Source of the DNA: Zootoca vivipara
Taxonomy: Eukaryota
DNA length: 64,000 nt
Reading direction: 5' to 3'
NCBI RefSeq assembly: GCF_963506605.1
Contig: NC_083283.1
Location: 36,642,001 to 36,706,000, forward strand
Each line of letters starts with the position of its first letter. Position 1 is the stretch's first letter. The notes beneath the pieces were generated by a model. The model ran no database searches. It saw only the letters and a list, made by a program, of their open reading frames with translations, and was not told the DNA's origin. Made by a program: the position numbers and the translations under genes. Shown piece after piece: positions 3,200-61,058 of the stretch.

Positions 3200-4344
3200 T
3201 CTAGAGTCATGGCACTTTATGATCTGTGTTTCATTGATAATTACGTACTTTATGGCAACTTGCTTTTTAACAGATTTATGGATTTTAGTGGTGTTATATT
3301 ATTTTGTTGGGCACACGACTTGGAGAGTTTTATGATTAAGAAGCATATAAACCTTTCTAAATAATCCAAATAAATAAAATTGAAGGGAAAGGGGGGGAGC
3401 CTGCCATTTAGTCTGTTTTACAGCCAAAACACATTTCACCATGCTCAGTCTCTCATGTGAAGCAGGACAATGGTCCACAAAATAGCCTCACTCAATCTCT
3501 CTCCATGTGATCTCAAGAGCATGGGGAGAAATGCCTGAACAGAGCTAATTTGTCATCTTCTTCCTGTGAAAAGTATGATGAAGTCACTGAGGCTCCACTT
3601 GAAGCCGCACAGTCTCCAGAGGAACCATTCTATGGTTGCCATGGGGCACTAATATGAAGATCAAGATAGAGAGAAACAGTGATACAAGAAGCCAAAGAAA
3701 ATGCTTTGTTGTTTTTTTAAGAAAAGAAGTTCTTACACCTTGGTGGATTGCAAACTCCTGAGACTGTATTAGCTCATGTGATCTTTTGAAAGAAACAAAG
3801 GGAAAACTCCAGCAAGGCAGAGTTCATTTGATAAAAAGGTCCACACGTAATGTAAACACAGCAAGAGCTGTCATTATCCATCCAAGGAGGTGATTATGAT
3901 GTGTGGGCTGTATTTTGCCTTTTCTCTGCAAACCATAAATTCTGCGGAGATTTAACAGGACAGAAAATACAAGCCACGGTGCCCTTAATACTACAGTCTA
4001 ACCTTACTTGATTCTACCTACCTACCAACTATCAGCTATCTATCCACCAATCCTTACTAAAAATAATATATCTACCATGCACAAATAATTATTAGTGTTA
4101 ATAATTATCTGAAGCCCTTCTCTATGTACCCCATCCTTAAGAGTTGTGCAGGGTGTGGACAGAAGAATCGACTTTCTCAGTGGCATTTCCATGTATATGG
4201 AATCCTCTCCCCAGGGCGGGATGCCTGACAGTGTAACTATTTGTTTTTAGGCACCATGCAAAACATTCTTGCTCTCCCAGGCTTAATTTCCTGCTTATCT
4301 TTTAGTGTGGTGGGGTTCAGTTGGCTTGCTTCATTTGTCTATGT

Positions 4345-4480
4345 CAGGCACCCCCAAACTTCGGCCCTCCAGATGTTTTGGACTACAATTCCCATCATCC
4401 CTGACCACTGGTCCTGTTAGCTAGGGATCATGGGAGTTGTAGGCCAAAACATCTGGAGGGCCGCAGTTTGGGGATGCCTG
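4345..4480. mobile_element. 136-bp hAT MITE
   Basis: TIRs CAGGCA(C/T)CCCCAAACT; perfect 8-bp TSD GTCTATGT (4337-4344, 4481-4488). Confidence 0.95.
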
Positions 4481-6766: not shown

Positions 6767-7039
6767 GGGACGTGGGTGGCGACCTACCAACCTAGCAGTT
6801 CGAAAGCACGTCAAAGTGCAAGTAGATAAATAGGTACTGCTCCAGCGGGAAGGTAAATGGCATTTCCGTGTGCTGCTCTGGTTTCGGCAGAAGCAGCTTA
6901 GTCATGCTGGCCACGTGACCCGGAAAAACTGTCTGCGGACAAATGTCGGCTCCCTCGGCCAGTAAAGCGAGATGAGCGCCACAACCCCAGAGTCGTTTGC
7001 GGCTGGACTTAACTGTCAGGGGTCCTTTACCTTTACCTT
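6767..7039 (+). mobile_element. Sauria SINE, internally deleted
   Basis: GGGACGTGGGTGGCG start, CCAACCTAGCAGTTCGAAAGCAC...AAGTAGATAAATAGGTAC body, (ACCTTT)n tail; 13-bp TSD TACTGAGATGGTC (6754-6766, 7040-7052). About 90 bp of the tRNA-like head present in the 46.9/47.8-kb copies is missing. Confidence 0.93.
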
Positions 7040-8631
7040 TACTGAGATGGTCATGCTGTTTCTATAATTGTACTGGGTTGCCTTTTGTAGCTGACTGTCA
7101 GTCATATATGGAGAACTATTGCTTTGGCAGCTCCAACAGGCGTAGTGATTGGTAGTACGTACTCACAGCAACAGTCTCTGTGAGTCCAGGCTGTATGGTT
7201 GCTCTATAAGCTGAGCTGAGGAATCAAATAACTGCATGGTGCCAAGGAAGTGAGGCCAGAAGCAGAGTGAGTCTAGAAACAATGCCTGAAAGCCAGTTCA
7301 TGCAGCTAGGCTGGCAAAAGCAGATCAAAGAGCATGGTGTCAAGTCTGAGACTTGAAGTAGCAAGGAAGGAGGAAAGATTATTTTGGATCAGGAAGTTAG
7401 ATTCAAAGATAAGCAGTGAATAAGCTAGGAAGTATAATTGTAGAGACAAGTTATGATTGCTGATTCATAAATCATGGGCAGAAGCTCTACAAAGAGGAGC
7501 TTCTGTATGTGTGGCAGAAGCTCTACATAGGGCCCAAAGCAGAATACATTTATTGACATTGTTTTATAGAGGATCTAGAGTTTCCAGATCAGCAGCTACC
7601 AAGAAGGTGTTGCACTGGCATGAAAGGTCTTCTGGTGAGTGGCATTCAAATATAAATCCCATAGGTAGCTGCTGGGATAAAGCTAAATTTCCAGAAACTT
7701 TCTGCATATAGGACACTGTTTCCATTAATTGTCTGAAATTATAATGTTGATTTTGGAATACTATCACTCCCCTCTTCTAGTCTCATAACCTCCCTCCCTC
7801 CCTTTTTATTTACCTTTCCTTTCTGGCTTTGATATTTTCCCTTATTCTGTATTGTTGCTATTATTGCTTTTTGTGTATTAGAAAGTAAAAAAACCCAAAA
7901 CAAAACTAAAGATTATCTCACAGAGTCATGTGTGATCAAATATTTAATTGCAGAGATATAGGCAGGGTGAGAGTTCCTATAGGCCAGTCAGCATGACAGT
8001 TCTTCTGGATCTGATACAGGGTCTCTCGGGTGAACTACTCATGTTTGGAGGCTGGGAATAGCCCCCTTGGTTGTATGCCATGTCAGGCTTGAATCCCAAG
8101 GCAGCTTTTAATTATAGCTTTTGGTTATAGTGTAATTGCAAGACAAGCTGAACTGATTAGCTTTTGAAAAGGTCTCTTAGATAAGCATTCATAGATAGAA
8201 AAAATAACAACATACTGACGTATCCTATTCCTTCGAATACTGCTGTGTGGCTCAGATTTCCATCTTCCCAGCAAAGCCAGGGAGCTGTCCATTAGGTCAG
8301 AGTTCAAGGCTTTTAAGATAGAACGGAGCTGTCCAACTAAGAAGGGCCTGAGGAGGAGACATTTCATCAGCAACTTCTAGACCTCAAAAGAGCAGCTTTA
8401 TAGCTTTATAGCTTTCCCTGCAGTTCTCAGAGTGTTGGCAGGGACTTTGACATTGTGCTGGATCTGGCTTTCTCCTTCTGAACAAGAGGAGATGGGAGGC
8501 TTTGTGTCAAGATTTACCTACAGTGGATGAATGGCAGATGAAGATGATTGAATTTATGGAACTGGCCGAGCTGACCGGGAGACTTTGTGACCAGAGGGAA
8601 GAGTCGGTGGAAGAAGATTGGAGGAAATTTA

Positions 8632-10720
8632 TTTTTTATTTTTTTTTAACATACTTTTTTTTAATTTTACAAAATACAAAAAAACAATAAAACGGTACAT
8701 ACTTAAACCCCTTTTCCACCTCCTTCCTACCCACCCACATGGGTCCTCCCCTGCCACAGAAGTATCCCATGTTTGTGAACAGTCAGAAATGGTCCATTTT
8801 ATGCTTGGATTTCTGTCCTCCTCCCCCTCCCCTGACCCCAAAGCCCCCCCCTGCCACCAGGGAGCTCCAGCAAACCAGGGCAGTACGCAGGAGGACATCC
8901 ATCCAACCATCTATTGTTATACCAAAAAAAGAGAAAAATAGAAATAGGAAAAAAAGGGGAAAAAGAAAGGGCGAAGAAAAAAAAGAAAAAGAAAAAAACA
9001 ATACAAAACAGAAAATTTTTTCTTGCATTCATAGTTGAAAAACCATATTTTATGGGCTTCCCCTCCCCCCCTTCCCCGGTTTTCATCCCTTTTTTATCAT
9101 CTGCAACAGTTTCTTACTTTATAAAAATACACCTTTGTATCTTATACAACTTATAAATCAATTGTTAACATTTTCATCTAATATTCAAATCACTGAAAAT
9201 TCAAACTCCCATTTTCTCTTCCCGTGCCTAATTTTTTTTTCTCCCTCTATAAGCCTCCATATTTTCACATTTTCCAAAATCCATTCACTTTTAAAACTAT
9301 AACTATTCTCAATTTAACCTTACATCCCCGATTACCGGCTCCACCCCCCCCAATCCAGCAAATTCCAAAATCAGCAGACCAGTTATAAACCTGTTAATCC
9401 ATCCTTATAATCCCAACATCACTTTCCCTTCACCCCACCCCCTGTTTACAGTCTCTTGCCATCCAGGTCACCATACAGGACCCCTGAATTTCTTCTCTTC
9501 TCTGCATATTTTTTCCTTCTTCCCTGTGGGCGTTCTGGAGTTCCAATAATACCAATCGTGCCCCCCTCAAAGGCAGGGCACTCCATCCAACTTTTTGTAG
9601 AGTAGAGTCATCATTTTTTTCATGGTGTGTTTCATTTTGTGTTGAATCATCACAGTCCTCATCTTCATCTTTTCCTTCCCCATCATTGTCATTCTCACAT
9701 TGCTCTTTTTCAGTGTCAAAAGCTTCATCTCCTAGAAAATCATATTCCGCCATCACCTCCTGAAATTTCTGCTGTAACTCCTGTCGTCGTGTCTCCTCTT
9801 GACATAACTCTATTCTTGTTTCCCACATTAAGGTCAAAACAGACCGCTGGAACTCAGGGGAACACTTTTTTGTTGACATATTTCAGTCCTGCCAAGGTCA
9901 AAACTTATCACGTGGGGTGGAATATGATCACAGTTTATTTTCTCGACTCCATTTTAACAAGCTGGCTGCATTCTTCAAGTCTTGTTAACAATAAAGTTCG
10001 AACTCACATTTCACAAGCACTTAAGCCAAAAAAGAAATTCCACAAAGTCCAGAAATACAAAGTGAAGTAAAAATTGACTTATAAATCCTGATCAACTCAC
10101 TGGATTGCCTGGGCTGCCGGCTCCCGAGGGAAAGAAAGGTTTTTCTTAGGCTTTACCTCATTGCTGCAGGGCAGTCATAAACCACAGTCTCTCTCCCCTT
10201 TTCACCCTGCATCAAAGGGGATATTCTCTTTGATGCCTTTGAGGGATCCTTTTGAATTACAAATCTTCTGTTTATGGCTTCGGGTTTCTATTTACTGTCT
10301 CTTTGTTGCCGTGGGGGGGGGGGTGGCTTCCTCTTTTCTCCCCTCTCTCCCAGACCAAATTGTTTTATAATCCAAATCGTGAGGTTACTTACAGTCTTTT
10401 CCAATCGTTTTATTTTCGGAAGAATCCAGCGCTCTCCGCCTTCGGCTTGAAGCTTCTCCCTGCTAGAATAACGTTGCCGCTCAAAATGGCCCCCGCGACT
10501 TCTACCCTCCTCGCTCCGGAGCTCTTATTAGAGCTAACCGAAGAGTTGGGGAGTCCGGATTGGGTCTGTGCCGAGCAAATTGCCCTCGGGACGCCCTTCC
10601 CGAGGTTCTAAGGGGCGCAGCGTTGCTCTCGCTGCCCTCCCCACTCCTAGCAGAGACGGGCCGTCTCGGAGACGAGACGAAACCCCGCCGATCGACGCTG
10701 GCGCTGAACCCGGAAGCCTC
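8632..10720 (-). mobile_element. Apparently full-length non-autonomous L1-type retroelement (HAL1-like), 2089 bp
   Basis: Perfect 19-bp TSD GAAGATTGGAGGAAATTTA (8613-8631, 10721-10739); A-rich tail on the minus strand; CpG-rich 5' end beginning GAGGCTTCCGGG; single ATG-initiated ORF; no RT. Confidence 0.85.
9430..9879 (-). CDS. 149-aa ORF of the nested retroelement (predicted coiled coil + acidic tract; possible ORF1 derivative)
   Basis: True ATG start, same orientation as the element, centrally placed between about 840-bp 5' and 800-bp 3' UTRs; EETRRQELQQKFQEVMAE helix followed by a D/E-rich stretch. No homology search was run. Confidence 0.5.
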   Translation of the reverse strand: MSTKKCSPEFQRSVLTLMWETRIELCQEETRRQELQQKFQEVMAEYDFLGDEAFDTEKEQCENDNDGEGKDEDEDCDDSTQNETHHEKNDDSTLQKVGWSALPLRGARLVLLELQNAHREEGKNMQRREEIQGSCMVTWMARDCKQGVG

Positions 10721-12422
10721 GAAGATTGGAGGAAATTTAAAGTTTATCTAAGAAATAAATGTAATATTGGAAATGTTTAAGACAAGATTTGGAAGTACAG
10801 GGAGGTTGTAGAGGAGGAGTTGTAGAGGTATTGTAGTATATTAAGATTTAGAGATAAGGTAAAATAAGATTTGTATGCTGTTAAAGAATTAAGATGAGGT
10901 GAAATTTTGTTAGTCATTTGTTAGTCAAGGTAATAAGATAATAATGATTGAAGTCTGATATAGAAATTTGTTAGTTAAGGTAATAATAAGATAAGTGAAG
11001 TATGATATAGAAATTACTAAGGATGATATATACTGAAAAGCAGAAAGGAGGGACTCGAGGAAGTCAACAATGTTAGGATACATGAATGATGAAAATGGTT
11101 GTTTTTGTTTTGCTTGTTTTTTGTATTTTGTATTTTTGTGTTTTGCGAGGTTTTTTTTGTATTTTTGTGTTTTATATGTTTTTTCAGTTTTATAAAATCA
11201 ATAAATATATTTTTTGGGGGGGGGGGAGACATGGGAGGCTTTGTGCCGCCAGAAGGACACTGTTGCATTGTTTCTGGGCTTTCATTTATATTTCCATTAT
11301 AGTTGCTCTTGGATTGTCAGGGATGACACTGGAGAGTATACAGCTGGGGTGGTGGTGGGTGGAATGCGTCCTCTAAATAGAGTGTCTGAGTGGTGGTGGT
11401 CATTGTCAATGTTCACTTGCTCTCACCGGAACTCAGTTCCAGCAGCTCTCAGGTGGGTGCCATTGCCATTCTAAGAGAACAAGGTGAGTTCTGGCACCCC
11501 TTTTTCTAGAAAAATAGCCCTGGTGATAGGATTTGTCGGTGTCAACCAGCTTTCCCCAAGTCTTTATTGGAAATCAAGAAGAACTCAAACCCAAACCTCT
11601 AACTGAGCTTGGCAAATGGAGGATTGGGAGGAAGCAACATTTGGCTTTGCTGGAGACGAGTCACAGCAGCCAGTGGGAAGTGGGAGAATGCTCTCCATTG
11701 CCAAGAAACTTGGCAGGCATGGCAGCAAAAGGGCAGGGTCGCACAATTCACCATCTGTGCTAAATTATTCAAAGGCCAAGGATCAAGGAGCACAAATAGA
11801 GAATATATTTCCTCTATAGAAGTGCAATGACAGATCACTGGAAAATTTCAAAAGAACAGTTTTAGTGCTCAGCTCCCAGCTTGAAATCGCAACTCTGATG
11901 GGGTGCCTGGGGGCCTGATTACACAGTTGACAATCTCAGGAGCACCACGCATGAGGCAGGGGGTTATGTAGGCTACTGTTTATTGGCTCATAAAGAAGGA
12001 GTTCTCAAGGGGGTGGAATAGCAGCTTCTCGTTTCAGAAAAAGAAATCCACGAGGCACATGCCCAACAGGTATTATTAACTATGGAAGTAACAAGATATG
12101 CCACAGTGTAATGGCTCAAATGGTCAGATCATAATGCTAATTATTTAGTCTTTTAGTTGAAGTCCCCACAGGATATTAAACACTGCCAACCACTTACTGT
12201 TGCAACAGCTAATTTCTAGTTCAGTTCCTCTGCCAGAATATCTCATTGCAAATGGCCTTCATGGAGCCAAACTGCAGAATGCCCTAGGCTACATATGAAT
12301 TAATCTACCCTAACCTGAAATTGGCAGCAGTGTCAAATCTGAACAGAGTGGGGGGTGGGTGGGAGAAGGCTAATTTAGGCATCCTTCACTGCAACCTTTT
12401 CACTTTTAAATAGGGTTACCTT

Positions 12423-22830: not shown

Positions 22831-24056
22831 CTTCCTTACTTTTTAAAATACATTTTCCAAAGCATTTTGTGGTGGCTTTTGTCATATGAACCAGTAGGAT
22901 TGGTAGCAAAACATCGATAAGGAAAATAATCATCCTAATTTCATACCAGACGTGGCCAAAATCCAGCTTCCTTAAAAAATGCTTTTACCAAAGGCCGAGT
23001 GCTGTTGCTCTTGTGTACAGCTTCCAGGCTTCCCACGGGCATCTGGTCAGCCACTGATCCAGCAGGCTCATTTAATGTTCTTATGTTCCGAAGGGGTTTT
23101 CATACTTCTTGTTTCACTGTTTATTTTGACCATGAAGGGCTGACAAATGGAAATAGGATCCCAAATGGAAACATTTGATAAACTCCTTTAATAGTCTCTT
23201 ACAATGCAACCCATCCTTGAGGCAAGGTGCAGTAGGACCCACAGGGGCAGCAGATCCCAATGTCAATCTTTCTCATCACCCCGTTTTTAATGTAGATGCA
23301 TATGGGGTCTGGCTCAAGTGCCGAAATGTCTCAGGGCGGCTCTGGTGCAACCTATGCATGTCTTATTCAGAAGTAGATGTAAGGTCATTGGGACTTACTC
23401 TTAAATAAGTGTGTATAGGACTGAAACCCAAATTATATGCTTCTGCATGACTTTTCTTGTCAGTTCTGATACTCAGGCAATTCCTCACATTTCACCTTCC
23501 CCACTGATAACTTTTGGCAACAATTTGTCTTTTAAAGCTGGAGAAACAGTGGACATGCTATTTCACCTTTGTAAAGACCTACATTTTGTACAATAGATCA
23601 AAGTATTGTGATGGAAAATGCATCACTTTACTTAACCATACAATTCCTTCCCTTCTGCCACTCAGTATGTGTTCAGCGCGAGTAAACTGAATGCACATCA
23701 GGGGTAGGAAATGAGGATCGCAGCAGCATGCTCTGCTAGCAGGATACTCTCTGCACAGACCCTCCTCATGTGCAAACTCATTCAATGTAGGCTATTTATA
23801 TGTGGTTGGTACCCTACAAATGCTGCAGCACTTGCACCGAACCTCAAAACATGTAAGATGGGAGACTAAACAGGAAGGGGCCAATGACTATAGTACAGTA
23901 GATTTTTGTAAGTGCTTTGTATGATACTACAGAAATTTTGACGTTTATTGGAAGACGGTTTCATATTGTAGTCATTTTTGTTATTTTTTCTTGAGAAAAT
24001 ATGTACAGCAGTGAGATTTTGAAAAGTGTTATTCAGGAAGTTTTCATGCTGTATAC

Positions 24057-24191
24057 CAGGCATCCCCAAACTGCGGCCCTCCAGATTTTTGGCCTACAAC
24101 TCCCATGATCCCTAGCTAAGAGGACCAGTGGTCAGGGATGATGGGAATTGTAGTCCAAAACATCTGGAGGGCCGAAGTTTGGGGATGCCTG
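24057..24191. mobile_element. 136-bp family hAT MITE (opposite orientation to the 4345 copy)
   Basis: TIRs CAGGCATCCCCAAACT; perfect TSD CTGTATAC (24049-24056, 24192-24199). Confidence 0.95.
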
Positions 24192-28660: not shown

Positions 28661-29058
28661 ATTATCTGTGTTGTCACTGTTGGGCCAGCAGAAGTCTGCT
28701 CATGTGACATTGGACATTTCTCAATATACAGACAGAGTAGGATCACAATTACCACCCAGGTTTCATTCAGTATTGGTTTCATTCAGTGATTTAACATGAT
28801 TCCTTGCTATCATAGAACCAGTGAATGTTCACCTGGATGTCAAGTATTTTGTGTGTATTTTGTGATTGCAGCTAGTAGTCCAAGCAAAGGTTTATTGGTT
28901 CTGATTTATTACATGATGAATAGGGCAACACCATATTATGGATTGGGGGAAATAAACAGGACTCCAGCCCATGGGTTAGGAGAAGCAGATGTACTTGCCA
29001 AAGAACATTAGGGACCCCTGATGTAGCTGGAGCCCTAAGCATAATGTTCAGTCTAAGC

Positions 29059-29193
29059 CAGGCCTCCCCAAACTTCGGCCCTCCAGATGTTTTGGACTAC
29101 AATTCCCATCTTCCCTGACCATTGGTCCTGCTACCTAGGGATCATGGGAGTTGTAGGCCAAAAATCTGGAGGGCTGCAGTTTGGGGATGCCTG
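29059..29193. mobile_element. 136-bp family hAT MITE
   Basis: Perfect TSD GTCTAAGC (29051-29058, 29194-29201). Confidence 0.95.
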
Positions 29194-31205
29194 GTCTAAG
29201 CCTTTCACTGAAGTCTTTCCTTGGAGGAAGGGAATTAAATATGGTCCTTTAACAGACATTGCAGATGGGGAAGTAATTATAAAGGCTATGCAGCATCTGT
29301 GCTTTACCCTTTTGAGCTTTAGCAGTTAAAGTGAGCAGCTTCCCTTCAGAGACTGACAACAGCATATAATGTTGTAGTGCCAGTTGTAATTTGCAGATGT
29401 ATTGCCAAGAATGAAAAATGAGTGAACCTGGGAAGCCTCGGGAATGGTGATGTAGGCTGATAATACCTATTGTACTGAGAATTAATAGTGGAGTAGCAAT
29501 TTATTAGCAAACTCCCCAATTCACTGCTCAGTAATAGCATGTAAAGGCGTAAAAGTGAAATTCAGTCATGTTCTGTTATAGCTCACAGCAGGCAACCTGC
29601 ATCTTCATTACAGGGCTTCACAGTCTTTGAAATCATAAAGCCAATGCAGATGTCAGAGTGTGGTAAAGAAGTTTTTAACAGCTTGTTGCTTCTGCAGAAC
29701 CACACTCTTGTTCCCACGCTGCTGGATAGCCTGTTTGCCAATGAGCACCACTATGTCTGATATGTATGCACAGTTGTGTTCTAATTTGGTGGCCAATATT
29801 CAAGGTACAAAGTAGAGGTCCTGGTACACAAGAAATCATGGAAATCAGAGAACAAACTCACATTGAGCAAACTTGACTTGGAAACATGATGAAAGAGATA
29901 CCCAGGTGCTAACAGGCAGTCAAAATATGTCAGGAGTGAGGAACCTGTGGCTTTTTAACTCCCATCAGCCCCAGTCAGCAGAGGCAATGGTCAGTGATGA
30001 TCGGAGGACCACAGATCCCCTCTACCTGGTCATAATGTAGGAGGTTGCACCTGCAAATAGGTACATTATGAAGCTGTAAAATACAAATAAATGTTGACAC
30101 ACTACAGTAAGAAAACATATTGTGATGAGGTTGGAGACTGAGACTGCTCACCTGTGCCAGTTGCATGGAATCACACCCAGGTGTACCTTGGGAGGGTGCA
30201 GGAGAGAAATTGTTTCTTCTCTATAAGCCACAGAGAAAGATGGAGAATGGGAGGGGGGGCAGAGTGAAGCAGAAAAAAATGTCTAGGGAAGATTTTGAGC
30301 ATGGTTAATGGCTTGTTGCAGGGAGAAGTGGTCCTCCATTCTACCCTATGTTGACCTGGGATGCCTAGGTCAAAGACCAGGGACCAAGAGTGGTTCTAAG
30401 CCATGTAAGCAGGGGCTCCAAATACTCTGAAGCTTGGGGGTTTGGGGAACGTACCACAGCAAAATCGAAATGGCTGACTATTACAGAATGAACTTAGCTG
30501 TTGTAGTTGCAGCAAGCATGTTTAGACTCTAAGAAACAATTATAAGCATATGATTGTGCTGTACGACATTGTACCTCAGAGCCATTTCTAACATGCCTGT
30601 TCAATATTCACATTCTGAAAAAAGTGGATAAGGAGAAGTTGTCAAAAAATGTTCTCAGAAGAGCATCATTGCCATCTGGAGACGATAATGCCCCAGGCGC
30701 ACATTTGGCAAAGTTCCTAGACCTCGCACCACCATTCATGCATCTCAGGCTCATGTTGAGGAATTCCCATATTGCACAGAAAATTCTGATAATACCATAG
30801 TACAAAAACAGCAGATGGAACTTCAGCACAGCCCTGCAGCATGCAATGCTTTCAGATACATGCCCCACATTACCTGAATTGGAAGGTTCAGAAAAGAGAG
30901 ACGGTCAAAAAACACTTTCGTTCATAAGATATGGGGCCTATCCAGCAGTTGCACAAATTTGGGCTTGATGTCTGTGTTCATACCAGCTTTCATAGCATTT
31001 GTTGTGTGTCTCTGTATAGGCTTCTTGCTTACAAGCTTTTGGAAATATTTCCTCTTCTCTGATTAAAGGTCTGTAGCCTCTTACATTTGAATAGTTTGAA
31101 GGGCTCCTTGGTTTACATCTAGCCAAAGTTGTCCATATTTTATTTATACCTCATAATACCCTGATTGATACTAAACTGTAGGGAATATGAACTGAAAGCA
31201 TAGAG

Positions 31206-38929: not shown

Positions 38930-39170
38930 GCTGAGGCTCCAATACTTTGGCCACCTCATGAGAAGAGAAGACTGCCTGGAAAAGACCCTGATGTTGGGAA
39001 AGATGGAGGGCACAAGGAGAAGGGGACGACAGAGGACGAGATGGTTGGACAGTGTTCTCGAAGCTACGAACATGAGTTTGACCAAACTGCGGGAGGCAGT
39101 GCAAGACAGGAGTGCCTGGCTTGCTCTGGTCCATGGGGTCACAAAGAGTCGGACACGACTAAACAACAGC
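38930..39170 (+). mobile_element. 5'-truncated RTE-BovB LINE
   Basis: LRLQYFGHLMRREDCLEKTLMLGKMEGTRRRGRQRTRWLDSV; TSD AAGTATAA (38922-38929, 39171-39178); sits in an AT-rich, L1-like remnant (about 38440-39290). Confidence 0.95.
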
Positions 39171-42935: not shown

Positions 42936-43271
42936 CAGGGGTGGCCACCTCCCAAGAGACTCTGATCTACTCAGAGTTTAAAACTGGGGGTGATCTACCC
43001 CCTTTTGGGGGGTTCAGGTCAAAGCTGTTGAGTTTTTTTTAAAGGAAGGGAAGCCCTGTTTTTTGGGGTTTAGGTCAAACTTGTTGAGCTTCTTTTAGGA
43101 GGGAGGGAGGTCCATTTTTGTTTAGGGCTTCAGGTCATAGTTCAACTTTTTTGAGGGAGGAGGAAAATTTTGGGTGAGCTTTTTTTAGGGGTGCCAGTGA
43201 CCTACCAGTGATCTACCACAGACATCCAGTGATCTACTGGTAGATCACAATCTACCTGTTGGACGTGCCTG
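42936..43271. mobile_element. 336-bp hAT MITE nested in the composite element
   Basis: Perfect TSD CTGTAAAT (42928-42935, 43272-43279); near-identical inverted copy at 58154-58491. Confidence 0.93.
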
Positions 43272-43393
43272 CTGTAAATCAAGCAGAGAGAAAGCTGCTT
43301 ACAAGGCTCCTGTACATGCAGAGTTCCAGCATCCCAGCGTCACCCAGAGGCACCCACAAATATGAGTTATCCCTCTCTCTATTTCTCTCTCTA

Positions 43394-44490
43394 TTGAACC
43401 ATGGTTGAAATATTATGCTGATATGCAGCAACGCCTCGGAGCCGTCGTGGCTGCGGCCATGCCTTGCCCCGCCCTCGCCCGCCCTTCCACCCCCTCTCGC
43501 CTGCCCGACCCTCCTGTCCTCTTGCTGCAGCGTTCCAGCATCACAGCGTCATCCAGAGACACCCACAAATATGAGTTATCTCTCTCTCTATTTCTTCCTT
43601 CCTTCCCTCCCTCTTCCATCCTTAATAAAATACGGGGGGGGGCAGATAAGCCCCACATAGAAAGCCCATCAACATGGGGGGATGACTCTTTCAAATACGG
43701 TATTTACCAGTAATTGGGGGGGGGGCACCTAGGCCTCTAGGAGTTGGATGCTATGCCTAGGAGTAGGACAATTCAAGAAAGCAGAATGATGCATATGCTA
43801 TGGTAATATATCAATAGAATCATAGAATTGTAGTCGGAAGGGACCACAAGGGTCATCTAGTCCAACCCCCTGCAATGCAGGATTTTTTCCTAAGGTGGGG
43901 CTTGAACCATGGTTGAAATATGCTGATATGCAGCAACGCCTCGGAGCCGTCGTGGCTGCGGCCATGCCTTGCCCCACCCTCGCCCGCCCTTCCACCCCCT
44001 CTCGCCTGCCCGACCCTCCTGTCCTCTTGCTGCAGAGTTATCCCTCTCTCTATTTCTTCCTTCCTTCCCTCCCTCTTCCATCCTTAATAAAATACGGGGG
44101 GGGCAGATAAGCCCCACATAGAAAGCCCATCAACATGGGGGGATGACTCTTTCAAATACGGTATTTACCAGTAATTGGGGGGGGCACCTAGGCCTCTAGG
44201 AGCTGGATGCTATGCCTAGGAGTAGGACAATTCAAGAAAGCAGAATGATGCATATGCTATGGTAATATATCAATAGAATCATAGAATTGTAGTCGGAAGG
44301 GACCACAAGGGTCATCTAGTCCAACCCCCTGCAATGCAGGATTTTTTCCTAAGGTGGGGCTTGAACCATGGTTGAAATATGCTGATATGCAGCAACGCCT
44401 CGGAGCCGTCGTGGCTGCGGCCATGTCTTGCCTCGCCCTCGCCCGCCCTGCCACCCCCTCTCGCCTGCCCGACCCTCCCGTCCTCTCCAG
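43394..44490. repeat. Tandem array, about 2.2 copies of a 459-508 bp unit containing a CR1 tail fragment
   Basis: TTGAACCATGGTTGAAATAT recurs at 43394, 43902 and 44361; each full unit holds ATAGAATCATAGAATTGTAGTCGGAAGGGACCACAAGGGTCATCTAGTCCAACCCC (reverse CR1 3' end). Confidence 0.92.
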
Positions 44491-45590: not shown

Positions 45591-45960
45591 GTGCTAGTAG
45601 GAGAGGACTTGGGTGAGGTCGAGGTCTAGAACCCTGCTCACCAGGAGGACCTCCAAATGCAAAAAGGCTTACACATTTTAAAACACGGATTGGTAACCAA
45701 GGCCCAAATGCGGCTCTCTGGGATTCTCTGCCTGGCCCTGGGGACCCTCCCCAGACCACAAAACCTGCCAAGCAACACTCTCACTAGCCCTACTCTTTAC
45801 CCTCATTGAGTTCATTTGCCTGTCTGAAATCTGCCCCTGAACTCTGATGATGTCTTTTGATTGCATTGGATGGAGGATAGAGAGTAAGGAAACCTGCTGC
45901 CATGTTTTGGGATGGGAGCCTGACATCTGGTACCACCTAGCACTGGAATATGGTATAATA

Positions 45961-46096
45961 CAGGCATCCTCAAACTTCGGCCCTCCAGATGTTTTGGACT
46001 ACAATTCCCATCATCCCTGACCACTGGTCCTGTTAGCTAGGGATCATGGGAGTTGTAGGCCAAAACATCTGGAGGGCCACAGTTTGGGGGTGCCTG
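45961..46096. mobile_element. 136-bp family hAT MITE
   Basis: Perfect TSD GTATAATA (45953-45960, 46097-46104). Confidence 0.95.
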
Positions 46097-46884: not shown

Positions 46885-47798
46885 GGGACCCAGGTGGCGC
46901 TGTGGGCTAAACCACTGAGCCTAGGGCTTGCTGATCAGAAGGTCGGCGGTTCGAATCCCTGTGACAGGGTGAGCTCCCGTTGCTTGGTCCCAGCTCCTGC
47001 CAACCTAGCAGTTCGAAAGCACATCAAAATGCAAGTAGATAAATAGGAACCGCTATAGCGGGAAGGTAAACAGTGTTTCCATGTGCTGCTCTGGTTTGCC
47101 AGAAGCGGCTTTGTGTCAGGAGTATGGGCAGGAGTCAGGCTCTGGGGCCTGTAGTGCTTTGCAGGACTGGAGCCTGCCTCAGCTTGTGCTGGAGAAGCAA
47201 GGAGTGGCCACTCAGGTGCGGCCACTTGATACCCCACTGCACCTGGTGGCAGGAGCTGGGAGGGATAAAAGCTCAGCATTTCCCTTCAGCTCTTTGCCAC
47301 AGCAACGCTATCCCTGCCTGCTTGCTTCTGGCCTCTTGCTCCTTGCTCCTTGGACCTTGCCGACGCCTTGCCCCTTGGACCCTTGCCTTGCCGACGTCTT
47401 GCTCCTTGGACCCTTGCCATGCCGATGTCTTGCTCCTCGACCCTTGGACCTTCGCCTTGCCGACGCCTTGCTCCTCGACCCTTGGATCTTCGCCTTGCCG
47501 ACGCCTTGCCCCTTGACTCTCAGACCTTCGCCTCTGCCTTGCTCCTTGACCCTGCGACTGCCTGCTTCTGGACCCTCAGCACCTGTTCCTGCTTCTTCAC
47601 CACCATCTTGCCTCTGGTCCTGACGCCCTCAGCCAGGGCTTCAACTGCCCACCGACCGGACCATGACACTTCGTCATGCTGGCCACATGACCTGGAAGCT
47701 ATACGCCAGCTCCCTCGGCGAATAATGCGAGATGAGCGTGCAACCCCAGAGTCGGTCACGACTGGACCTAATGGTCAGGGGTACCTTTACCTTTACCT
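46885..47798 (+). mobile_element. Sauria SINE with nested solo LTR
   Basis: tRNA-like head (GGTGGCGCTGTGGGC...GGTTCGAATCCC), conserved body, (ACCTTT)n tail; the body is interrupted at 47114-47668. Confidence 0.93.
47114..47668 (+). mobile_element. Solo LTR, 555 bp, with internal minisatellite
   Basis: TGTCA...TGACA ends; 5-bp TSD CTTTG/CTTCG; GATAAAA TATA-like motif near 47264; tandem CCTTGCCGACGCCTTGC(C/T)CCT(T/C)G repeats at about 47340-47550. Confidence 0.8.
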
Positions 47799-47814
47799 TA
47801 TAGTCTTGGTAGAT

Positions 47815-48175
47815 GGGACGTGGGTAGCACTGTGGTCTAAACCACTGAGCTTAGGGCTTGCCAATCAGAAGGTCGGCGGTTCAAATCCCCACAACGGGGT
47901 GAGCTCCCGTGGCTCGGTCCCAGCTCCTGCCAACCTAGCAGTTCAAAAGTGTGTCAAAGTGCAAGTAGATAAATAGGTACCATTCCGGTGGGAAGGTAAA
48001 TGGTGTTTCCGTGTGCTTCTCTGGTTCGCCAGAAGCAGCTTAATCATGCTGGCCACATGACCTGGAAGCTGTCTGCGGACAAACGCTGGCTCCCTTGGCC
48101 TATAGAACGAGATGAGCGCCGCAACCCCAGAGTCTTCCACGACTGGACCTAACGGTCAGGGGTACCTTTACTTTA
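47815..48175 (+). mobile_element. Sauria SINE, full length
   Basis: Same structure as the preceding copy, uninterrupted; flanked by TAT(A/T)GTCTTGGTA repeats. Confidence 0.95.
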
Positions 48176-49753
48176 CCTATTGTCTTGGTACATTTCCCCA
48201 AAGTGTATTTCCTGTGTGTCAACTCAAGTATTACCAGTATTTCTGTTGTTTGACTTCCCAGATACTATTCCCACAAAAATTAAGGTTGTATGGACCCCCT
48301 GCCCTTCACAGAAAAAACTGGTAAATTCATCAGTTTTTCACTCTGGTACATCTTGAAAGACAACATCTGCATAGAACAGCAAATGATCCACATTTTAGTT
48401 CTCTGTCCAGATTTTGAGACAATGGTTTTTTTCATCCCGGGATTCATTATTTAAATTTCAAACAAACCTTAACATTTTTGGCAACTTAAAACACTAGGAT
48501 AATGCCCAGACAGTATTTACATAAAATTCACAAGCCACCTTGCTGCAAATCTCTAGCAAACACACATTGTGGATTGAATTTCACTCCACTTTTCTGGTCA
48601 ATTTTGCTTTGCCCATCTTCAAATTCCTATTGTCCACACTCCTAGAGAGTGCCTCTTGATGTTCTTCTGCAAGGAAATCCATGAAAAAAGAAGAAAGGGA
48701 AGGATGGGATAAAACAAAAACAAAAACAAACATTGCCTCTTAGCTTTGAGGGCTTGGAAAGACAATTCCAAACTCCATTCAGCTTATTTTCTTTCTTTCC
48801 AAGCTAGCAAAAAAAGCTGGAGTCACCCCCTTTCTTTTAAGGAAACAACAGCAAACCCTTCCAAATTTCTGAGGAGTAAAGGGGGAAGCCCAAGGGTTCA
48901 CCAATACCAAGCTGCTGCCAACCCAACACTTTTGAAGAACAATTTGCATTATATCAGAGTATTTTTGTTTCTGTGGAGGTCACTAGGCCTAGCATTAGAC
49001 CTAGAAAAGTTCCAGGAAAACAGTTTTTACTGTTTCCAGGTAAGCACATTTATTGGAAAGGGCAAAGAGTTTAAGGAAATTGATTTTGTAGTACCATCTG
49101 CCAGTTGCATTGCATAAAAGTGAAGTTTGTTCTTTTACTCGGTAAATTTGGTTTTTTATTGCAAGCGTTTTACATTATATAGCAATAACATTGTCCCAAG
49201 TGTTTAAGGAAAGGACATAGCAGGTAATTAAGTTACTTCAATTATAGCTGTAATTTTCAAAGTAGAATTATTTCAACAAGATTAATTAAATTTAACTGAA
49301 ACAGTTTTAGAAAGGCAGTTCCTCCACTGCAGAAATGACAGCCATCTCTAGTACCCAGAAAGTAGAGTGTGAAGAGCTCATTATGGGATGTCTTGTGTTA
49401 CTTGTTTCCTTCTGTTGGATACACTACAATCCATTCAGTCATTTCTGGTAGGCGTGAGTGAAGATCTACATCAGGTACAAGAGGGGAATAAATATCTACC
49501 TTAGAAACAAGGGAGTGAATGAAGATCTACATCAGCAACAAAGAGGGGGAATCAAATCAACTTTACCCAGATCAAAGGCCGTTGCAGGGCTAGGGGGGAA
49601 GGGGGGAGAGAGAAAGTGGCCTAATCTGAATCACACAGTGCAGGTGAAGAGACCCTAGGGGTGGGAGGAGGCCAGCGAAAACTGTTAACATGAAAAAATA
49701 AAAAGAGATAACTCCGCCTTTCCGTTTTTGCAATCATGCGAAAATGAAAGACA

Positions 49754-53670: not shown

Positions 53671-53785
53671 TGTTGTTGTTGTTTAGTCATTTAGCGGTGT
53701 CCGACTCTTCGTGACCCCATGGACCAGAGCACGCCAGGCACTCCTGTCTTCCACTGCCTCCCGCAGTTTGGCCAGACTCATGTTC
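53671..53785 (-). mobile_element. BovB 3' end fragment
   Basis: (GTT)n then TAGTCATTTAGCGGTGTCCGACTCTTCGTGACCCCATGGACCAGAGCACGCCAGGCACTCCTG. Confidence 0.92.
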
Positions 53786-55595: not shown

Positions 55596-58153
55596 CACTT
55601 GGCATTTAATGTTAGGTACAAAACCAACAAGAGTGAGGGAATTAAAAATTAAGAGTTGCTGTCAGGACTTCAGGGTGCATTATATGATCCCACTCTTTTC
55701 AAAAAACAGTGATTAGGGAGATGACCGCCAAGGAAGGAAAAGAGTACCTCAAAATGAAGACCCATGCTGGTGAGTAAGCCTACATCTCACTTCATATGGC
55801 AGAAACCTGTAGTAATTATCAGAGCCAGGGTTTAGAAGGGCGATATCGAGACTTTAAGTCTGAGGCTGGAGCCAATTAAAATAGAAATAATCATGGCGAG
55901 GAAAGTTTGGCATGTGATAAAAATCCATGTGGCTGTGACACGTGTTTGTGATCCAAAGCCTTGCCATTTGCCTTTATGAAACTGCTAAACTGCAGATAAT
56001 AAACACACTGAGATGTGTCTGGCTTTCAGTACCAAGCAGGATTTTTCTTTTGTTTTTTTTTAAAGCAGCATTAGAGCTATGTGCAGTGTAGATTTATGGG
56101 GTGTTACAAGTTCAGGAAGCCATGAGAGAGTGAAAGTGCCAGGCCCGTGGCTCAAAAAAACAGAAAGCCTGGGGAATGAAATGTCAAAGCGTTAATGTAA
56201 TCCTTGCTCGATCTGGTAGTTCTAGTATCTCCATATCAGCATTTCAGTGTCAGAGTTTCGCATTAAATAGGAGAGTTTATAGCATATAATTATTGATAGT
56301 TTGAAAGACAGGTTTTTTTGTGCTATAGCCTATACTGTAAGCGCAGGTTGTAAAGGAAGCATTTTGCTTATCTGTTGCCACATCCAGGGCGTTTTGCACT
56401 CCCAACAGCCATTAGAAATGTGAAGCACAATTTGCATAGAGCCATGTTCCCTAGTCCCACCACCACCCATCAGAACTCATCACTTTTCATTATTCCAGTG
56501 AGAACAGCCAGCTGCAATCTGTCTGGGAAAATGGATGACTAAGCAATCCCAACCAAGTGTTCACCAAGACTGGGGAACAGCTCTACCATTCTCCATTTCA
56601 GAAAGGTTGTAGAGATGTTTCTGTTGCCCTGCGCCATTGTAAACTGATGTGGTCATTGACCAGCATATATGAAGCATGGCTGTTCATGCATCAGCCATGA
56701 CTGCCCTTAATGCCATGACACTACGTCTATCCCAAATACTCTTAAACACGAGTGCTGTTGTCACAGAAGGCTCATTTACATGCTAGAGTCATTTCAAGGA
56801 ACGTGTGTTATTTTACAAGGCTGCCAAAGTAAAGACCTCTTCAAACCAGGGATGTAGCAAGGTTGTATGATTATTTTTTATGATGTCCATCTTGACACAT
56901 GTATGCACAATCACATATTATGCATCAGGTGACAGGCTCAGCGAAATCATGCAATTGCCAACCATGCTGGTGCAATCAAACTCTGCTCCTTGAAAAAATT
57001 GTGCCAAATAATGTCAATGATTATTGACACCCAATTCCGGAACTGGTCCTTTCCAAAGCATACCATGTTCTATCAACTGAAGAAGCTGTTTATTCTTACT
57101 TCAAACCAAGGCAAAATCTTTTCCCAAGAAAACCTCTCTGAAGAAAATTCAAAGCAAGAAAAGAAATGGCAACCAATGAGCCAAAGAACTGCTGAGGACA
57201 GGCTTGGTATGAAATTGAGGATTTGGTGTGCAACAGCCCATGACCTAGCCTGAGGGTAACTGCAGGGGTGTTTTTTTTGTACTCCATCCTACCACCTACG
57301 GCCAACATGAAATCTCTGAAGCACCAAACTGTTTTTATTCTGTCAAAATGATGGATCTGGCTATATAATAAATTACAGGGAGCAATCTGTCCTAGTCAAA
57401 TAAAACTCTGCAGGATTGCTGAAAAGATAGGTAGTAGGTGGAGAGAGTAGAGTTGGGGTGGGGAGGGTTAGTGGCTTAAAAAACAACAATGCTGTGATAG
57501 TGGTAAGAACAGAAAATGTTCTCCATGCTTCTAGATGAACCTGAAGGTTTCCCCTCCTGCTGCTATTTTTTGTAGCATGTCACTGTTCTCTTATAGCACT
57601 TACATGTCTGAAATCAGAATAGTGAGTGCTAAATATGCACAACTGATATTTTAGCATGGGAACAAGAGTCTTATATAAACACTGTTGTTGGTTTGCCTGA
57701 GGTTAATAACAAAAAGCACCCCTAAGCCATCCTTAGAAGTCATGCATATGTCAAAGACCTTCTCTGCTTTCACAGGTACATCGTGACAAGACAAGACCCC
57801 ATGTGGTATTCTGGAGGCATCACCTACATATTTAAAATAGCTATTCAGTCGATACTTTTCAGCTGATAGTACTGCTGCCATGCAGCTGTCCATTTGTTCT
57901 TGTGCAATTGCCCATTGGTTGTCAGGTTGTCAGGCAGTGCCCTTCATTTTTAAGACAAGAAAGCAGGATTGGGACATATAGAAAGCAATATGGAATATGG
58001 GTTCCTGGTGGTGCAATGTGAAAGAAGAACAAATCACAAGGACAACTTAATCCATCACAAAACTTGCACAGTTTAAGAGCTCTTAAAACCATAAGTGGCA
58101 TAAGTGGGAGTTGTGGCACAGGAATGTTTGGGAGTTGTCTGATTGCTCTAGAC

Positions 58154-58491
58154 CAGGCACGTCCAACAGGTAGATTGTGATCTACCAGTAGATCACTGGA
58201 TGTCTGTGGTAGATCACTGCTAGATCACTGGCACCCCTAAAAAAAGCTCACCCAAAATTTTCCTCCTCCCTAAAAAAAGCTGATCTATGACCTGAAGCCC
58301 TAAACAAAAATGGGCCTCCCTCCCTCCTAAAAGAAGCTCAAAAAGTTTGACCTAAACCCAAAAAAACAGGGCTTCCCTTCCTTAAAAAAACTCAACAGTT
58401 TTGACCTGAACCCCCCCCCAAAGGGGGTAGATCACTCCTGTTTTTTAACTCTGTGAGTAGATCAGAGTCTCTTGGGAGTTGGCCACCCCTG
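58154..58491. mobile_element. 338-bp hAT MITE
   Basis: Perfect TSD CTCTAGAC (58146-58153, 58492-58499); inverted copy of 42936-43271. Confidence 0.93.
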
Positions 58492-60922
58492 CTCTAGACA
58501 AACCAGGAGCAAACATTGCCACCCATTCACTATTTAAGCATTCAACGTTGCCTCAATTTCTGCTGCATCTGAACATGAAAGTATTCTTAGACCCATGTCT
58601 GAGTTTGTGATGTGCGAAGGAACACTAATGCCTGTCCTCTGGGCCAAACACATGGAAAAAAACGCACTGCCAAACATGAGTGACAGAGATGCCAACAAGG
58701 GCCACACATAATGTGTTCATGTTTTAGCTGCTCTCAATATTTGTTTTATTGTGGGGAAAACCACACACACCCAACACACACACACATGCTTGTGAAATCT
58801 AATTGTTCCTGAGTAATGTCCTCTTCTGTAATGCTCCTTGCTTCACATGGAAGGCTGGGAAAGTTGCTCATGCTTCAGGGGTGGAGAAGGGAGCTTTACA
58901 AAAGCAAATGCAGGCTGTTGGGAAATGCATTGTGGGAGGGAGAGAATTGTGTACTAGTCTCAAAGTGTCTGGGGGAAAAGCAAGCAAACACAACCACCCT
59001 TTTAGGACTACTATAGCCTTTCCAAGACATCTTTGTATTTTTGCTGAGGCTCTTGGGTCTGCATGGCTTCAGTCCAGCTGTTGTCATGTACGTATTCCCT
59101 CCCCACCCCAGTGGGTGGCTTCTCTTGTCTCAGGTGACTGGAGAAGATGATTCCTGCTGATTCATTCATTCTGGCCAAACCAAGCACTCTAGGTGGCTGG
59201 CAGAAGAGTAAAGCCATGGGGGAAGCCATGATAGAGGGTGGGAGATGGATCACTGATCTGATTCTCCTGGCATTACATATACTGAATCAAACCAAGAGTT
59301 GTGTGGTTTCCAAGGCAACACACTGCCTTCCCCATTCCCATACAACAATTTCCAAGCAGAAGTGCAAAAATGTATATGCACAAAATAATACCAAGCAAAT
59401 TAAAGCCTTGAAACAAATGAGTTTTTTTAAAGGAGCTGCAAAGTCGACTGCAATTTTCAATCTACTTATGAGATTAATAATGCTAGGAATGTTCGTTTGT
59501 AATAAGAATATATAGATAATGCTGATTGCCAACAAGACAATAGGAATGGATCTTCTGGAACAGCCTTCACCAACCTCTCCAGATGTTGTTAGACTCCAGG
59601 GTGCTGGCAGGGGTTGATGGGAACAGTCATTCAACATCTGAAGGGCATCAGGTTGGTGAAGGCTTATCTCACAGCACCCCAAGTCTAGTCCTCTCACTTC
59701 ATATTGGAAGTAGAAAGCAGGGTTTTAATATATTATGGAAGAAAAGGCTCGACATTATTTAATGTAGGTTTAAATAAAAGCATATTTTCTATTTCACTGA
59801 TAATATTTTATGTATTAAGCATATTACACACACATTATAGGTGTGAAGGGGAGTCACCTGATTAAAGGGGCTGTGGTGCCATACTGCTGGTTCTGCCTCC
59901 AAATATCATGTGGCTTCCTGTGCCCCATAATATTCATGGATTATACATGGACAACTGAGCTGGGGAAGCCTACCTGCATAGACCTGTACGTTTCCCCTAG
60001 GAAATGGACCACTGCATAGCCTGAGTTCCAGCACCCAGGGAAGTCTGTGCACATAGAGATCTACATGCATAAAACTTCTACTGCAGACATTCATGCTTGA
60101 TGTGTGGATGTCAGGGGCAGAATGAGGATGTTGTGCAATCTCAGGGGAGAAGTGAACAGTGGGAAAGGGCAGTGCCACACACCTGGCCTCCTGGCAGCAG
60201 CAGCAGCACTGCCATATACTGGAAGGGAGGGGAGGGAGATGACAAGTTGGTGCTGTGTGCGAAGAGATTTTCACACCTGAGGCAGACACTAAAATGGTAT
60301 CCCCCTCACGGCCAGGGAACAAGGAACACCAGGAACTGGTGGGATCCACAGAATGCTGTGTGAAATAGTAAGTCTGCAGGCCTGCGTGTACTAGTAAAGT
60401 GAAATTGGCTGATGCAATACGTTCTATAGGAGTGCTGGGTCAGAATGTCTCAGCAGTAATGTGCTGTCAGTTGATTGGCTGTCATCAGTTTAAAAGGGAA
60501 ACCTTTCCAGGAGTGAGTGTGGTGGTGGAGTAGAAGGGTGTGGTCAGTGAGAGGTTTAGAGAGAGTATAAACTGTTCATGTATGAACTGCCTGTAGATAT
60601 TTGTATATAGCTCACAATAAATAGGCTATCCTGCACTGAGGAACCTGGAACTCTGAGCATTTCTGCTAAAACACCGTGAAGGAATTCGCGACAGCAACAA
60701 GGAGGGGAGAAAGATCTGTATCCAAGATTTGCTGCCCCTGTGGATCTTGCCGCCTGAAGCACCCTCATAGGTGGGCCTGCCCTGGCTGTGTGGCCACACC
60801 AGCAGAACCAATCTGGCTTTTCCACCAGTGCAGCTGCACAGTGCCAATGTCTCTTCCAGTCAGTGGCAGTGACTCAGAGGGTGGGGCACATTTTTGTAGT
60901 GCAGGGGCAACTTACCGTAAGG

Positions 60923-61058
60923 CAGGCATCCCCAAACTTCGGCCCTCCAGATGTTTTGGACTACAATTCCCATCTTCCCTGACCACTGGTCCTGTTAGCT
61001 AGGGATCATGGGAGTTGTAGGCCAAAACATCTGGAGGGCCGCAGTTTGGGGATGCCTG
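60923..61058. mobile_element. 136-bp family hAT MITE
   Basis: Perfect TSD CCGTAAGG (60915-60922, 61059-61066). Confidence 0.95.

Follow-up and report, generated by a model that had tools for sequence, protein, structure and literature searches.

Structure of the locus

The window (the whole stretch of 64,000 nucleotides that was analysed) contains an insert at positions 8632 to 10720, which is 2089 bp long, lies on the minus strand and interrupts another repeat. All coordinates are those of the window. The features of this locus are as follows.

8507 to 11230, plus strand: host element, an older 5'-truncated L1 (ORF2 C-terminus and 3'UTR) with its own 15-bp target site duplication (TSD); an ORF2p relative aligns on both sides of the insert
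10721 to 10739: TSD of the insert, 5' copy, 19 bp, or 18 bp for a nick at the plus-strand TTT/AA between 10738 and 10739
8613 to 8631: TSD of the insert, 3' copy, the longest flank repeat
10421 to 10720, minus strand: 5' end rich in CpG, probably an internal Pol II promoter (from CpG content and an 8/9 match to the GACTTCCGG core)
9880 to 10720, minus strand: leader of 841 nt, GC 0.49, 39 CpG, six upstream ATGs, resembling the L1_AC15 5'UTR
10387 to 10395, minus strand: motif resembling a splice donor, with GTAAGT at 10392, or position 329 of the element (expected by background at 0.15 per 841 nt)
9430 to 9879, minus strand: 149-aa ORF, ATG to TGA, with a short basic start, an amphipathic helix (residues ~8-52), a D/E tract (53-95) and a weakly coding-like last third
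8921 to 9429, minus strand: L1-3'UTR-like segment, A/T/G-rich, with a purine box and a T-rich tract in the order found in the host L1 3'UTR
8700 to 8920, minus strand: G-rich extra segment (~220 nt) before the final end, by sequence inspection
8632 to 8699, minus strand: a short T-rich stretch, hexamers resembling poly(A) signals and the A-rich tail, by sequence inspection

The insert lies within an older L1, and this nesting, absent from the initial annotation, is new here. The host L1 is ~620 bp long after removal of the insert and one TSD copy, and is flanked by its own 15-bp TSD (8492-8506 and 11231-11245). The insert is antisense to it and lies at its ORF2 end, where it splits the last ORF2 codons. 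P0001, a relative of the host L1 frame (59% identity, 95% of the 43-aa query), is similar to the C-terminal end of human L1 ORF2p (3e-6) and aligns on both sides of the insert, at 8457-8627 (E 1e-14) and 10721-10777 (E 0.96). At ~11205-11230 of the host L1, a T run followed by a G run occupies the place where the A tail is expected, despite the clean 15-bp TSD.

Insertion by L1 machinery

The perfect direct repeat at the edges of the insert is the longest repeat common to both flanks, and its chance expectation is ~2e-8 (among ~4200 flank pairs). The plus strand at the edge of the duplication reads TTT/AA, between 10738 and 10739, and TTT/AA is the consensus of the L1 nick (PMC13295347). The TSD is therefore counted as 18 or 19 bp, because one shared A may be a chance match, and with this proviso the 2089-bp minus-strand insert with a perfect 19-bp TSD is as initially described. 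The tail is A-rich, as also described, with ATTAAA/AATAAA hexamers at 8665 and 8640. The perfect TSD, the TTT/AA nick and the A tail support the proposal that L1 machinery put the insert in place by target-primed reverse transcription of the L1 type. The A-rich tail is not a microsatellite tail of the Bov-B/RTE kind, such as (CAA)n, the tail of Bov-B elements in table 4 of PMC13295347. Tx1-type elements insert repeatedly at the same target (PMC4494074), and one insertion is known here. The insertion is probably young, as the initial annotation held, because the duplication is unmutated and the CpGs are retained.

5' and 3' regions of the insert

The first 300 nt of the insert have a GC content of 0.62 and contain 29 CpG (o/e 1.02), in agreement with the CpG-rich 5' end reported before. 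The start of the insert matches, by eye, 8 of the 9 nucleotides of the GACTTCCGG core, which opens lizard clade-1 L1 (PMC5381506, section 9). Anolis clade-1 starts were compared by eye over the first 400 nt of the consensus sequences given in the supplement of PMC5381506, where 7/9 begin with GACTTCCGG or a G-extended version of it. The ATGGCG that follows the core in most of these starts is missing from the insert, and likewise from L1_AC15 at that place (PMC5381506, supplement). L1_AC15, for which a 5'UTR of 792 nt with one CpG island at 1-248 is given (PMC5381506), is the best fit among Anolis clade-1 L1 to the leader length and single CpG island of the insert.

The six upstream ATGs of the leader open frames of 1-19 codons and all lie between the donor-like motif and the ORF. 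GT(A/G)AG is present at ~230-370 nt in 9/9 Anolis clade-1 starts (by eye), at a background of 0.23 per 140 nt; these nine cases are not independent, because the families are related. A donor-like GT(A/G)AG lies 3' of the CpG island in the insert as in all nine, which may point to a 5'UTR intron in lizard L1; no report of such an intron was found in the literature. A SINE with a tRNA, 5S, 7SL or snRNA head does not fit the insert, because no small-RNA-derived 5' head is found: the two Rfam matches at E<=1 are far below the gathering score and not at the 5' end, and the insert contains no tRNA gene.

The segment 9429-8921 aligns with the host L1 3'UTR with a score of 99. No window control (n = 242) and no full shuffle (n = 300) scores as high, whereas block shuffles do so in 5-24% of cases (p 0.05-0.24). 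In its 3' part the insert seems to share the arrangement of the host L1 3'UTR, a likeness of layout rather than proven homology. The part of the insert after the ORF stop is ~780 nt long, as compared with 96-570 nt for 12/12 Anolis 3'UTRs (PMC5381506). The segment 8700-8920 is either the second half of a long 3'UTR or 3'-transduced DNA. The 3' end looks two-tiered, as 3' transduction would give. Two G-quadruplex-like tracts are seen in the 3' part, at 9089-9060 and 8851-8823 on the minus strand. The insert is probably built from L1 ends, because its start is like that of Anolis clade-1 L1 and its 3' layout is like that of the host L1 3'UTR.

Absence of endonuclease and reverse transcriptase

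No Pfam family is found at E<=1 in any of the six read-through frames of 8700-10720, and no L1 protein of the PDB is found at E<=10 in any of the three sense frames of the insert. P0001, used as a positive control for this search as a relative of the host L1 ORF2 end, finds human ORF2p (at 3e-6, as above). The insert has no endonuclease (EN) or reverse transcriptase (RT) of its own, as the initial annotation stated, and cannot copy itself, because no EN/RT relic is present.

The 149-aa frame

The ORF with a charged helix and a D/E tract that had been described is present, the helix covering residues ~8-52 and the tract 53-95. The frame has a pI of 4.5, and residues 53-95 include 18 D/E and 3 K/R. 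The single-sequence AlphaFold model has a helix from residue 8, a pLDDT of ~80 only for residues 11-40 and a mean of 56, and contains, at this low confidence, no strand. In the best of seven heptad registers, 8/12 a/d positions are hydrophobic.

A frame of at least 149 aa arises on the sense strand in 0.3% (whole) and 0.2% (local) of 2000 dinucleotide shuffles and on either strand in 4-5% of shuffles, and 6/232 overlapping real strands of the same size elsewhere in the window reach this length. For the codon-position signal, p is 0.052 in residues 1-52, <0.001 in the acidic tract and 0.79 in residues 96-149. Among 46 other stop-free frames of the window, five match or beat the overall score of the 149-aa frame. 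Most of the coding signal comes from the acidic tract, and any GAN-type repeat would give such a signal. A second frame is also open across the last third of the ORF. By its length and composition, the 149-aa frame appears to be more than a product of chance and less than a demonstrated gene. The stretch IGIIGTPE in the second open frame (9607-9446), which presumably recalls the start of the ORF1p RRM, was rejected as such a start; this frame stops ~30 codons on and nothing matched it.

Protein searches for relatives of the 149-aa frame gave 19 and 315 candidates, none of which scored, and the protein has no match at E<=0.001 among 1.84 billion representatives. Its exact sequence is absent from the protein collection searched. 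None of 63 pattern matches was confirmed in a metagenome pattern scan for the protein, and a metagenome scan with a 25-nt start pattern gave no match. The word-based protein collection, which holds few squamate repeats, gave just one protein for the host L1 fragment, and the blank for the 149-aa frame is therefore stronger evidence against a conserved host gene than against a protein encoded by a repeat. The Pfam matches of the ORF (six families, best E 0.098) were rejected as acidic-tract noise, and the atlas matches Mua and CEP128 as chance-level scores below 0.9 (best 0.75 and 0.81). The atlas recognition of the protein is 1406, which is lower than the 2300 of most known families. Foldseek gives no match with the model, and VIA-align with the same low-confidence model gives a best match of Z 6.3 (rmsd 4.2, 103 residues aligned), followed by generic long helices at Z 5.1-5.6. 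The structural comparison with L1 ORF1p that had been proposed yields a model with a helix (mean pLDDT 56), but a match to ORF1p is not seen, either by Foldseek or among the best 50 rows of VIA-align.

These results bear on the possibility that the insert belongs to a genuine family of non-autonomous elements, composed of L1 5' and 3' ends but effectively non-coding, and that the frame is an accident of purine-rich GAN-repeat DNA. Such a family would move as in the mechanism proposed below, but would require the A tail alone. The restriction of the coding signal to the triplet-like acidic tract and the flat last third argue for this possibility, as do the either-strand frequency in shuffles, the equally long frames on real strands, the lack of relatives in the protein searches and the six upstream ATGs. 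In addition, lizard clade-1 5'UTRs of up to 1465 nt are given in PMC5381506, and a leader of that length could swallow the frame, which ends at element position 1291. However, the low sense-strand frequency persists with local shuffles, the frame lies where ORF1 belongs and it encodes an amphipathic helix. ORF-less bipartite derivatives are listed by Kojima 2018 only for RTE, Ingi, Vingi and R2 (PMC5786205). A non-coding family is doubtful on balance, though a serious contender; if the frame is incidental, the insert would still be an ORF-less bipartite derivative of the L1 clade, a kind unlisted there.

Probable repetitive nature of the insert DNA

No second copy of the insert is present within the 64-kb window, and the terms family and intact-looking in the initial annotation thus go beyond what the window itself displays. 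The words of the insert are held by 20/23 listed sequencing runs, 18 of which hold half of them or more, and these runs come from 9 studies (library types are guessed). The four runs of sample S4, which may be the source of the assembly, have word shares of 0.66, 0.78, 0.75 and 0.74 at 45, 455, 1379 and 1612 million letters respectively, whereas a single-copy locus is expected to scale to ~0.03 and 0.28 of the deepest S4 run. One run of a second organism has a word share of 0.51. Converted to divergence, word shares between 0.85 and 0.51 mean a difference of no more than 0.5 to 2.2%. No RNA run holding insert words is found among the runs listed, again with guessed library types. This comparison, made without a control locus, points to young, repetitive DNA and lends indirect support to the repetitive nature implied by the earlier annotation, although the unit of repetition may be an autonomous parent L1. 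Word shares do not separate a 2.1-kb family from a one-off deletion, because a multi-copy autonomous L1 gives the same picture.

A single event, or a very rare one, in an autonomous L1 could also have produced the insert: internal deletion, splicing or template switching during one insertion would have linked the 5'UTR and the beginning of ORF1 to the 3'UTR, and the frame would then be an ORF1 N-terminus with read-through. Both ends of the insert are L1-like and the last third of the frame looks non-coding, as this origin predicts; the parent family would give high word shares, and no second copy lies in the window. The N-termini of ORF1 are variable and their coiled coil may start up to ~123 aa in (PMC5381506, section 10). 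On the other hand, there is no relic of ORF2, so that the deletion must span from inside ORF1 to inside the 3'UTR, and the part after the stop exceeds all 12 Anolis 3'UTRs given in PMC5381506. A 43-aa acidic tract is not described for L1 ORF1p in sections 9-10 of that paper. We regard this origin as rather unlikely; if it is correct, the insert is ordinary.

Retrocopies, too, have a TSD, an A tail and a 5' end that is full-length and CpG-rich. The insert might accordingly be a processed retrocopy, the source being a lineage-specific mRNA or lncRNA of the host whose first exon came from an L1 promoter. This is very improbable: no parent is found by the protein search, made with a collection poor in squamate repeats; the insert still has the donor-like motif and the upstream ATGs, which is not the pattern of a spliced mRNA; the 3' layout is of the L1 type; and the word shares are those of a repeat.

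Comparison with HAL1 and other elements

The initial annotation called the insert HAL1-like. HAL1 (half-L1) was reportedly described from mammals by Smit in 1999 and by Bao and Jurka in 2010. It encodes ORF1p, and protein-coding non-autonomous L1 derivatives are described from mammals as keeping the whole ORF1p (PMC5753468, PMC3627910, PMC13756887). In lizards, ORF1p consists of a coiled coil, an RRM and a CTD, and ORF1 is 762-1125 nt long in 12/12 Anolis elements (PMC5381506). The earlier statement that the ORF is much shorter than a normal ORF1 is therefore correct, whereas membership in HAL1 is not upheld: an ORF1p with coiled coil, RRM and CTD does not fit into 149 aa and is not detected in the frame, either as a Pfam family past chance or as an ORF1p chain by sequence, so the insert is not HAL1 as defined. 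A remnant of the N-terminal part of ORF1p may be contained within the frame.

The insert is similar to HAL1 in its L1-like 5' end, one frame in the ORF1 position, the absence of ORF2 (EN, RT), an A tail with a TSD at an L1-type nick and a presumed dependence on ORF2p in trans. It differs in that HAL1 is mammalian and has ORF1p, whereas the insert is from a squamate and its frame is less than half a lizard ORF1, has no detectable RRM or CTD and carries an acidic tract. To judge from these features, it appears to resemble HAL1 in its way of working but to lack the ORF1p that defines HAL1. Like Anolis L1 clade 1, especially L1_AC15, the insert has a CTTCCGG-type start, a leader of ~800 nt and one 5' CpG island with a donor-like motif behind it (by eye, first 400 nt; PMC5381506). 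Unlike these elements, it lacks ORF2 and a full ORF1, is 2.1 kb long instead of 6.2-6.7 kb and has a longer 3' part (PMC5381506). LINE 5' and 3' parts are joined without RT also in the bipartite LINEs that contain ORF1, HeT-A and Ag-Sponge, and in those that contain no ORF, RIME, NARTc and Bov-A, but all of these belong to other LINE clades and the coding ones keep a recognisable ORF1/Gag (PMC5786205). The protein retained in HeT-A and Ag-Sponge is proposed to multimerise with the partner's proteins (PMC5786205), and the HAL1 protein is likewise proposed to join the partner's ORF1p (PMC3627910). No squamate element of this kind was found in the literature; Repbase and Dfam were outside this search, so it may be catalogued already. 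The insert is probably a new non-autonomous L1 derivative with a putative encoded protein.

Possible origin and mechanism

The reading that we tentatively favour, and to which we assign somewhat less than an even chance, is that the insert is a young copy of a non-autonomous family derived from squamate L1 ends and that its frame is a shrunken ORF1, the product of which joins the partner's ORF1p. The CpG-rich 5' end would drive Pol II transcription from within the element, and the full-length polyadenylated RNA would be taken up in trans by the ORF2p of an autonomous L1. This ORF2p would nick at TTT/AA, prime reverse transcription on the A tail and close the second strand at a distance of 18-19 nt. 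The frame, which occupies the position of ORF1, would be a much changed ORF1 that kept the helix, lost the RRM and CTD and gained the acidic tract. The 149-aa protein would oligomerise through its helix with the partner's ORF1p and in this way draw the RNA that encodes it into L1 particles, a role like that proposed for the proteins of HAL1, HeT-A and Ag-Sponge. We infer the 2.1-kb unit as the family, the partner L1, the translation and the role of the protein. The location of the frame on the sense strand and at the ORF1 position, and its length, which exceeds that in 99.7% of shuffles, are counted for a shrunken ORF1, whereas the six upstream ATGs, the lack of a protein relative and a start motif of just a 9-mer without ATGGCG are counted against it.

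It is also conceivable, though unlikely, that the helix joins the partner's ORF1p oligomers while the acidic tract acts as an RNA mimic, so that the protein competes for L1 particles and could damp the autonomous L1. The protein would then be made from a spliced message, in which splicing from the donor-like motif at 10392 to an acceptor immediately 5' of the ORF start removes the six upstream ATGs, and the unspliced RNA would retrotranspose. If the shrunken-ORF1 reading is true, a reptile family with a helix and an acidic tract only would reveal what a parasite must retain of ORF1p in cis, and the multimerisation proposed for HAL1 and HeT-A would be directly testable with a 149-aa construct.

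Other repeats in the window

Outside the locus, a scan of all stop-free frames of at least 72 aa except 22 that lie beyond 57 kb (150 of 172 frames) gives no Pfam match; shorter exons fall below its size threshold. A near-palindromic MITE-like element of 141 nt is present in five copies that are up to 97% alike (4340-4480, 24051-24191, 29054-29194, 45956-46096 and 60918-61058). Two 253-nt copies at 43035-43287 and 58138-58390, in opposite orientation and 94% alike, represent another young repeat. A 459-bp tandem duplication with 97% matches lies at 43573-44486 in a GC-rich area, where more partial copies are found from 43308. A 168-aa stop-free frame without a Pfam match lies at 964-1470 on the plus strand, and dispersed repeats lie at 1-204, 38979-39167 and 53671-53785 and at 6783-7038 and 46885-48178; we take this frame and these repeats to be Bov-B 3' ends and Sauria SINEs. 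Within a SINE-like pair, a tandem array of 31-38-nt units at 47334-47538 contains several long open frames.
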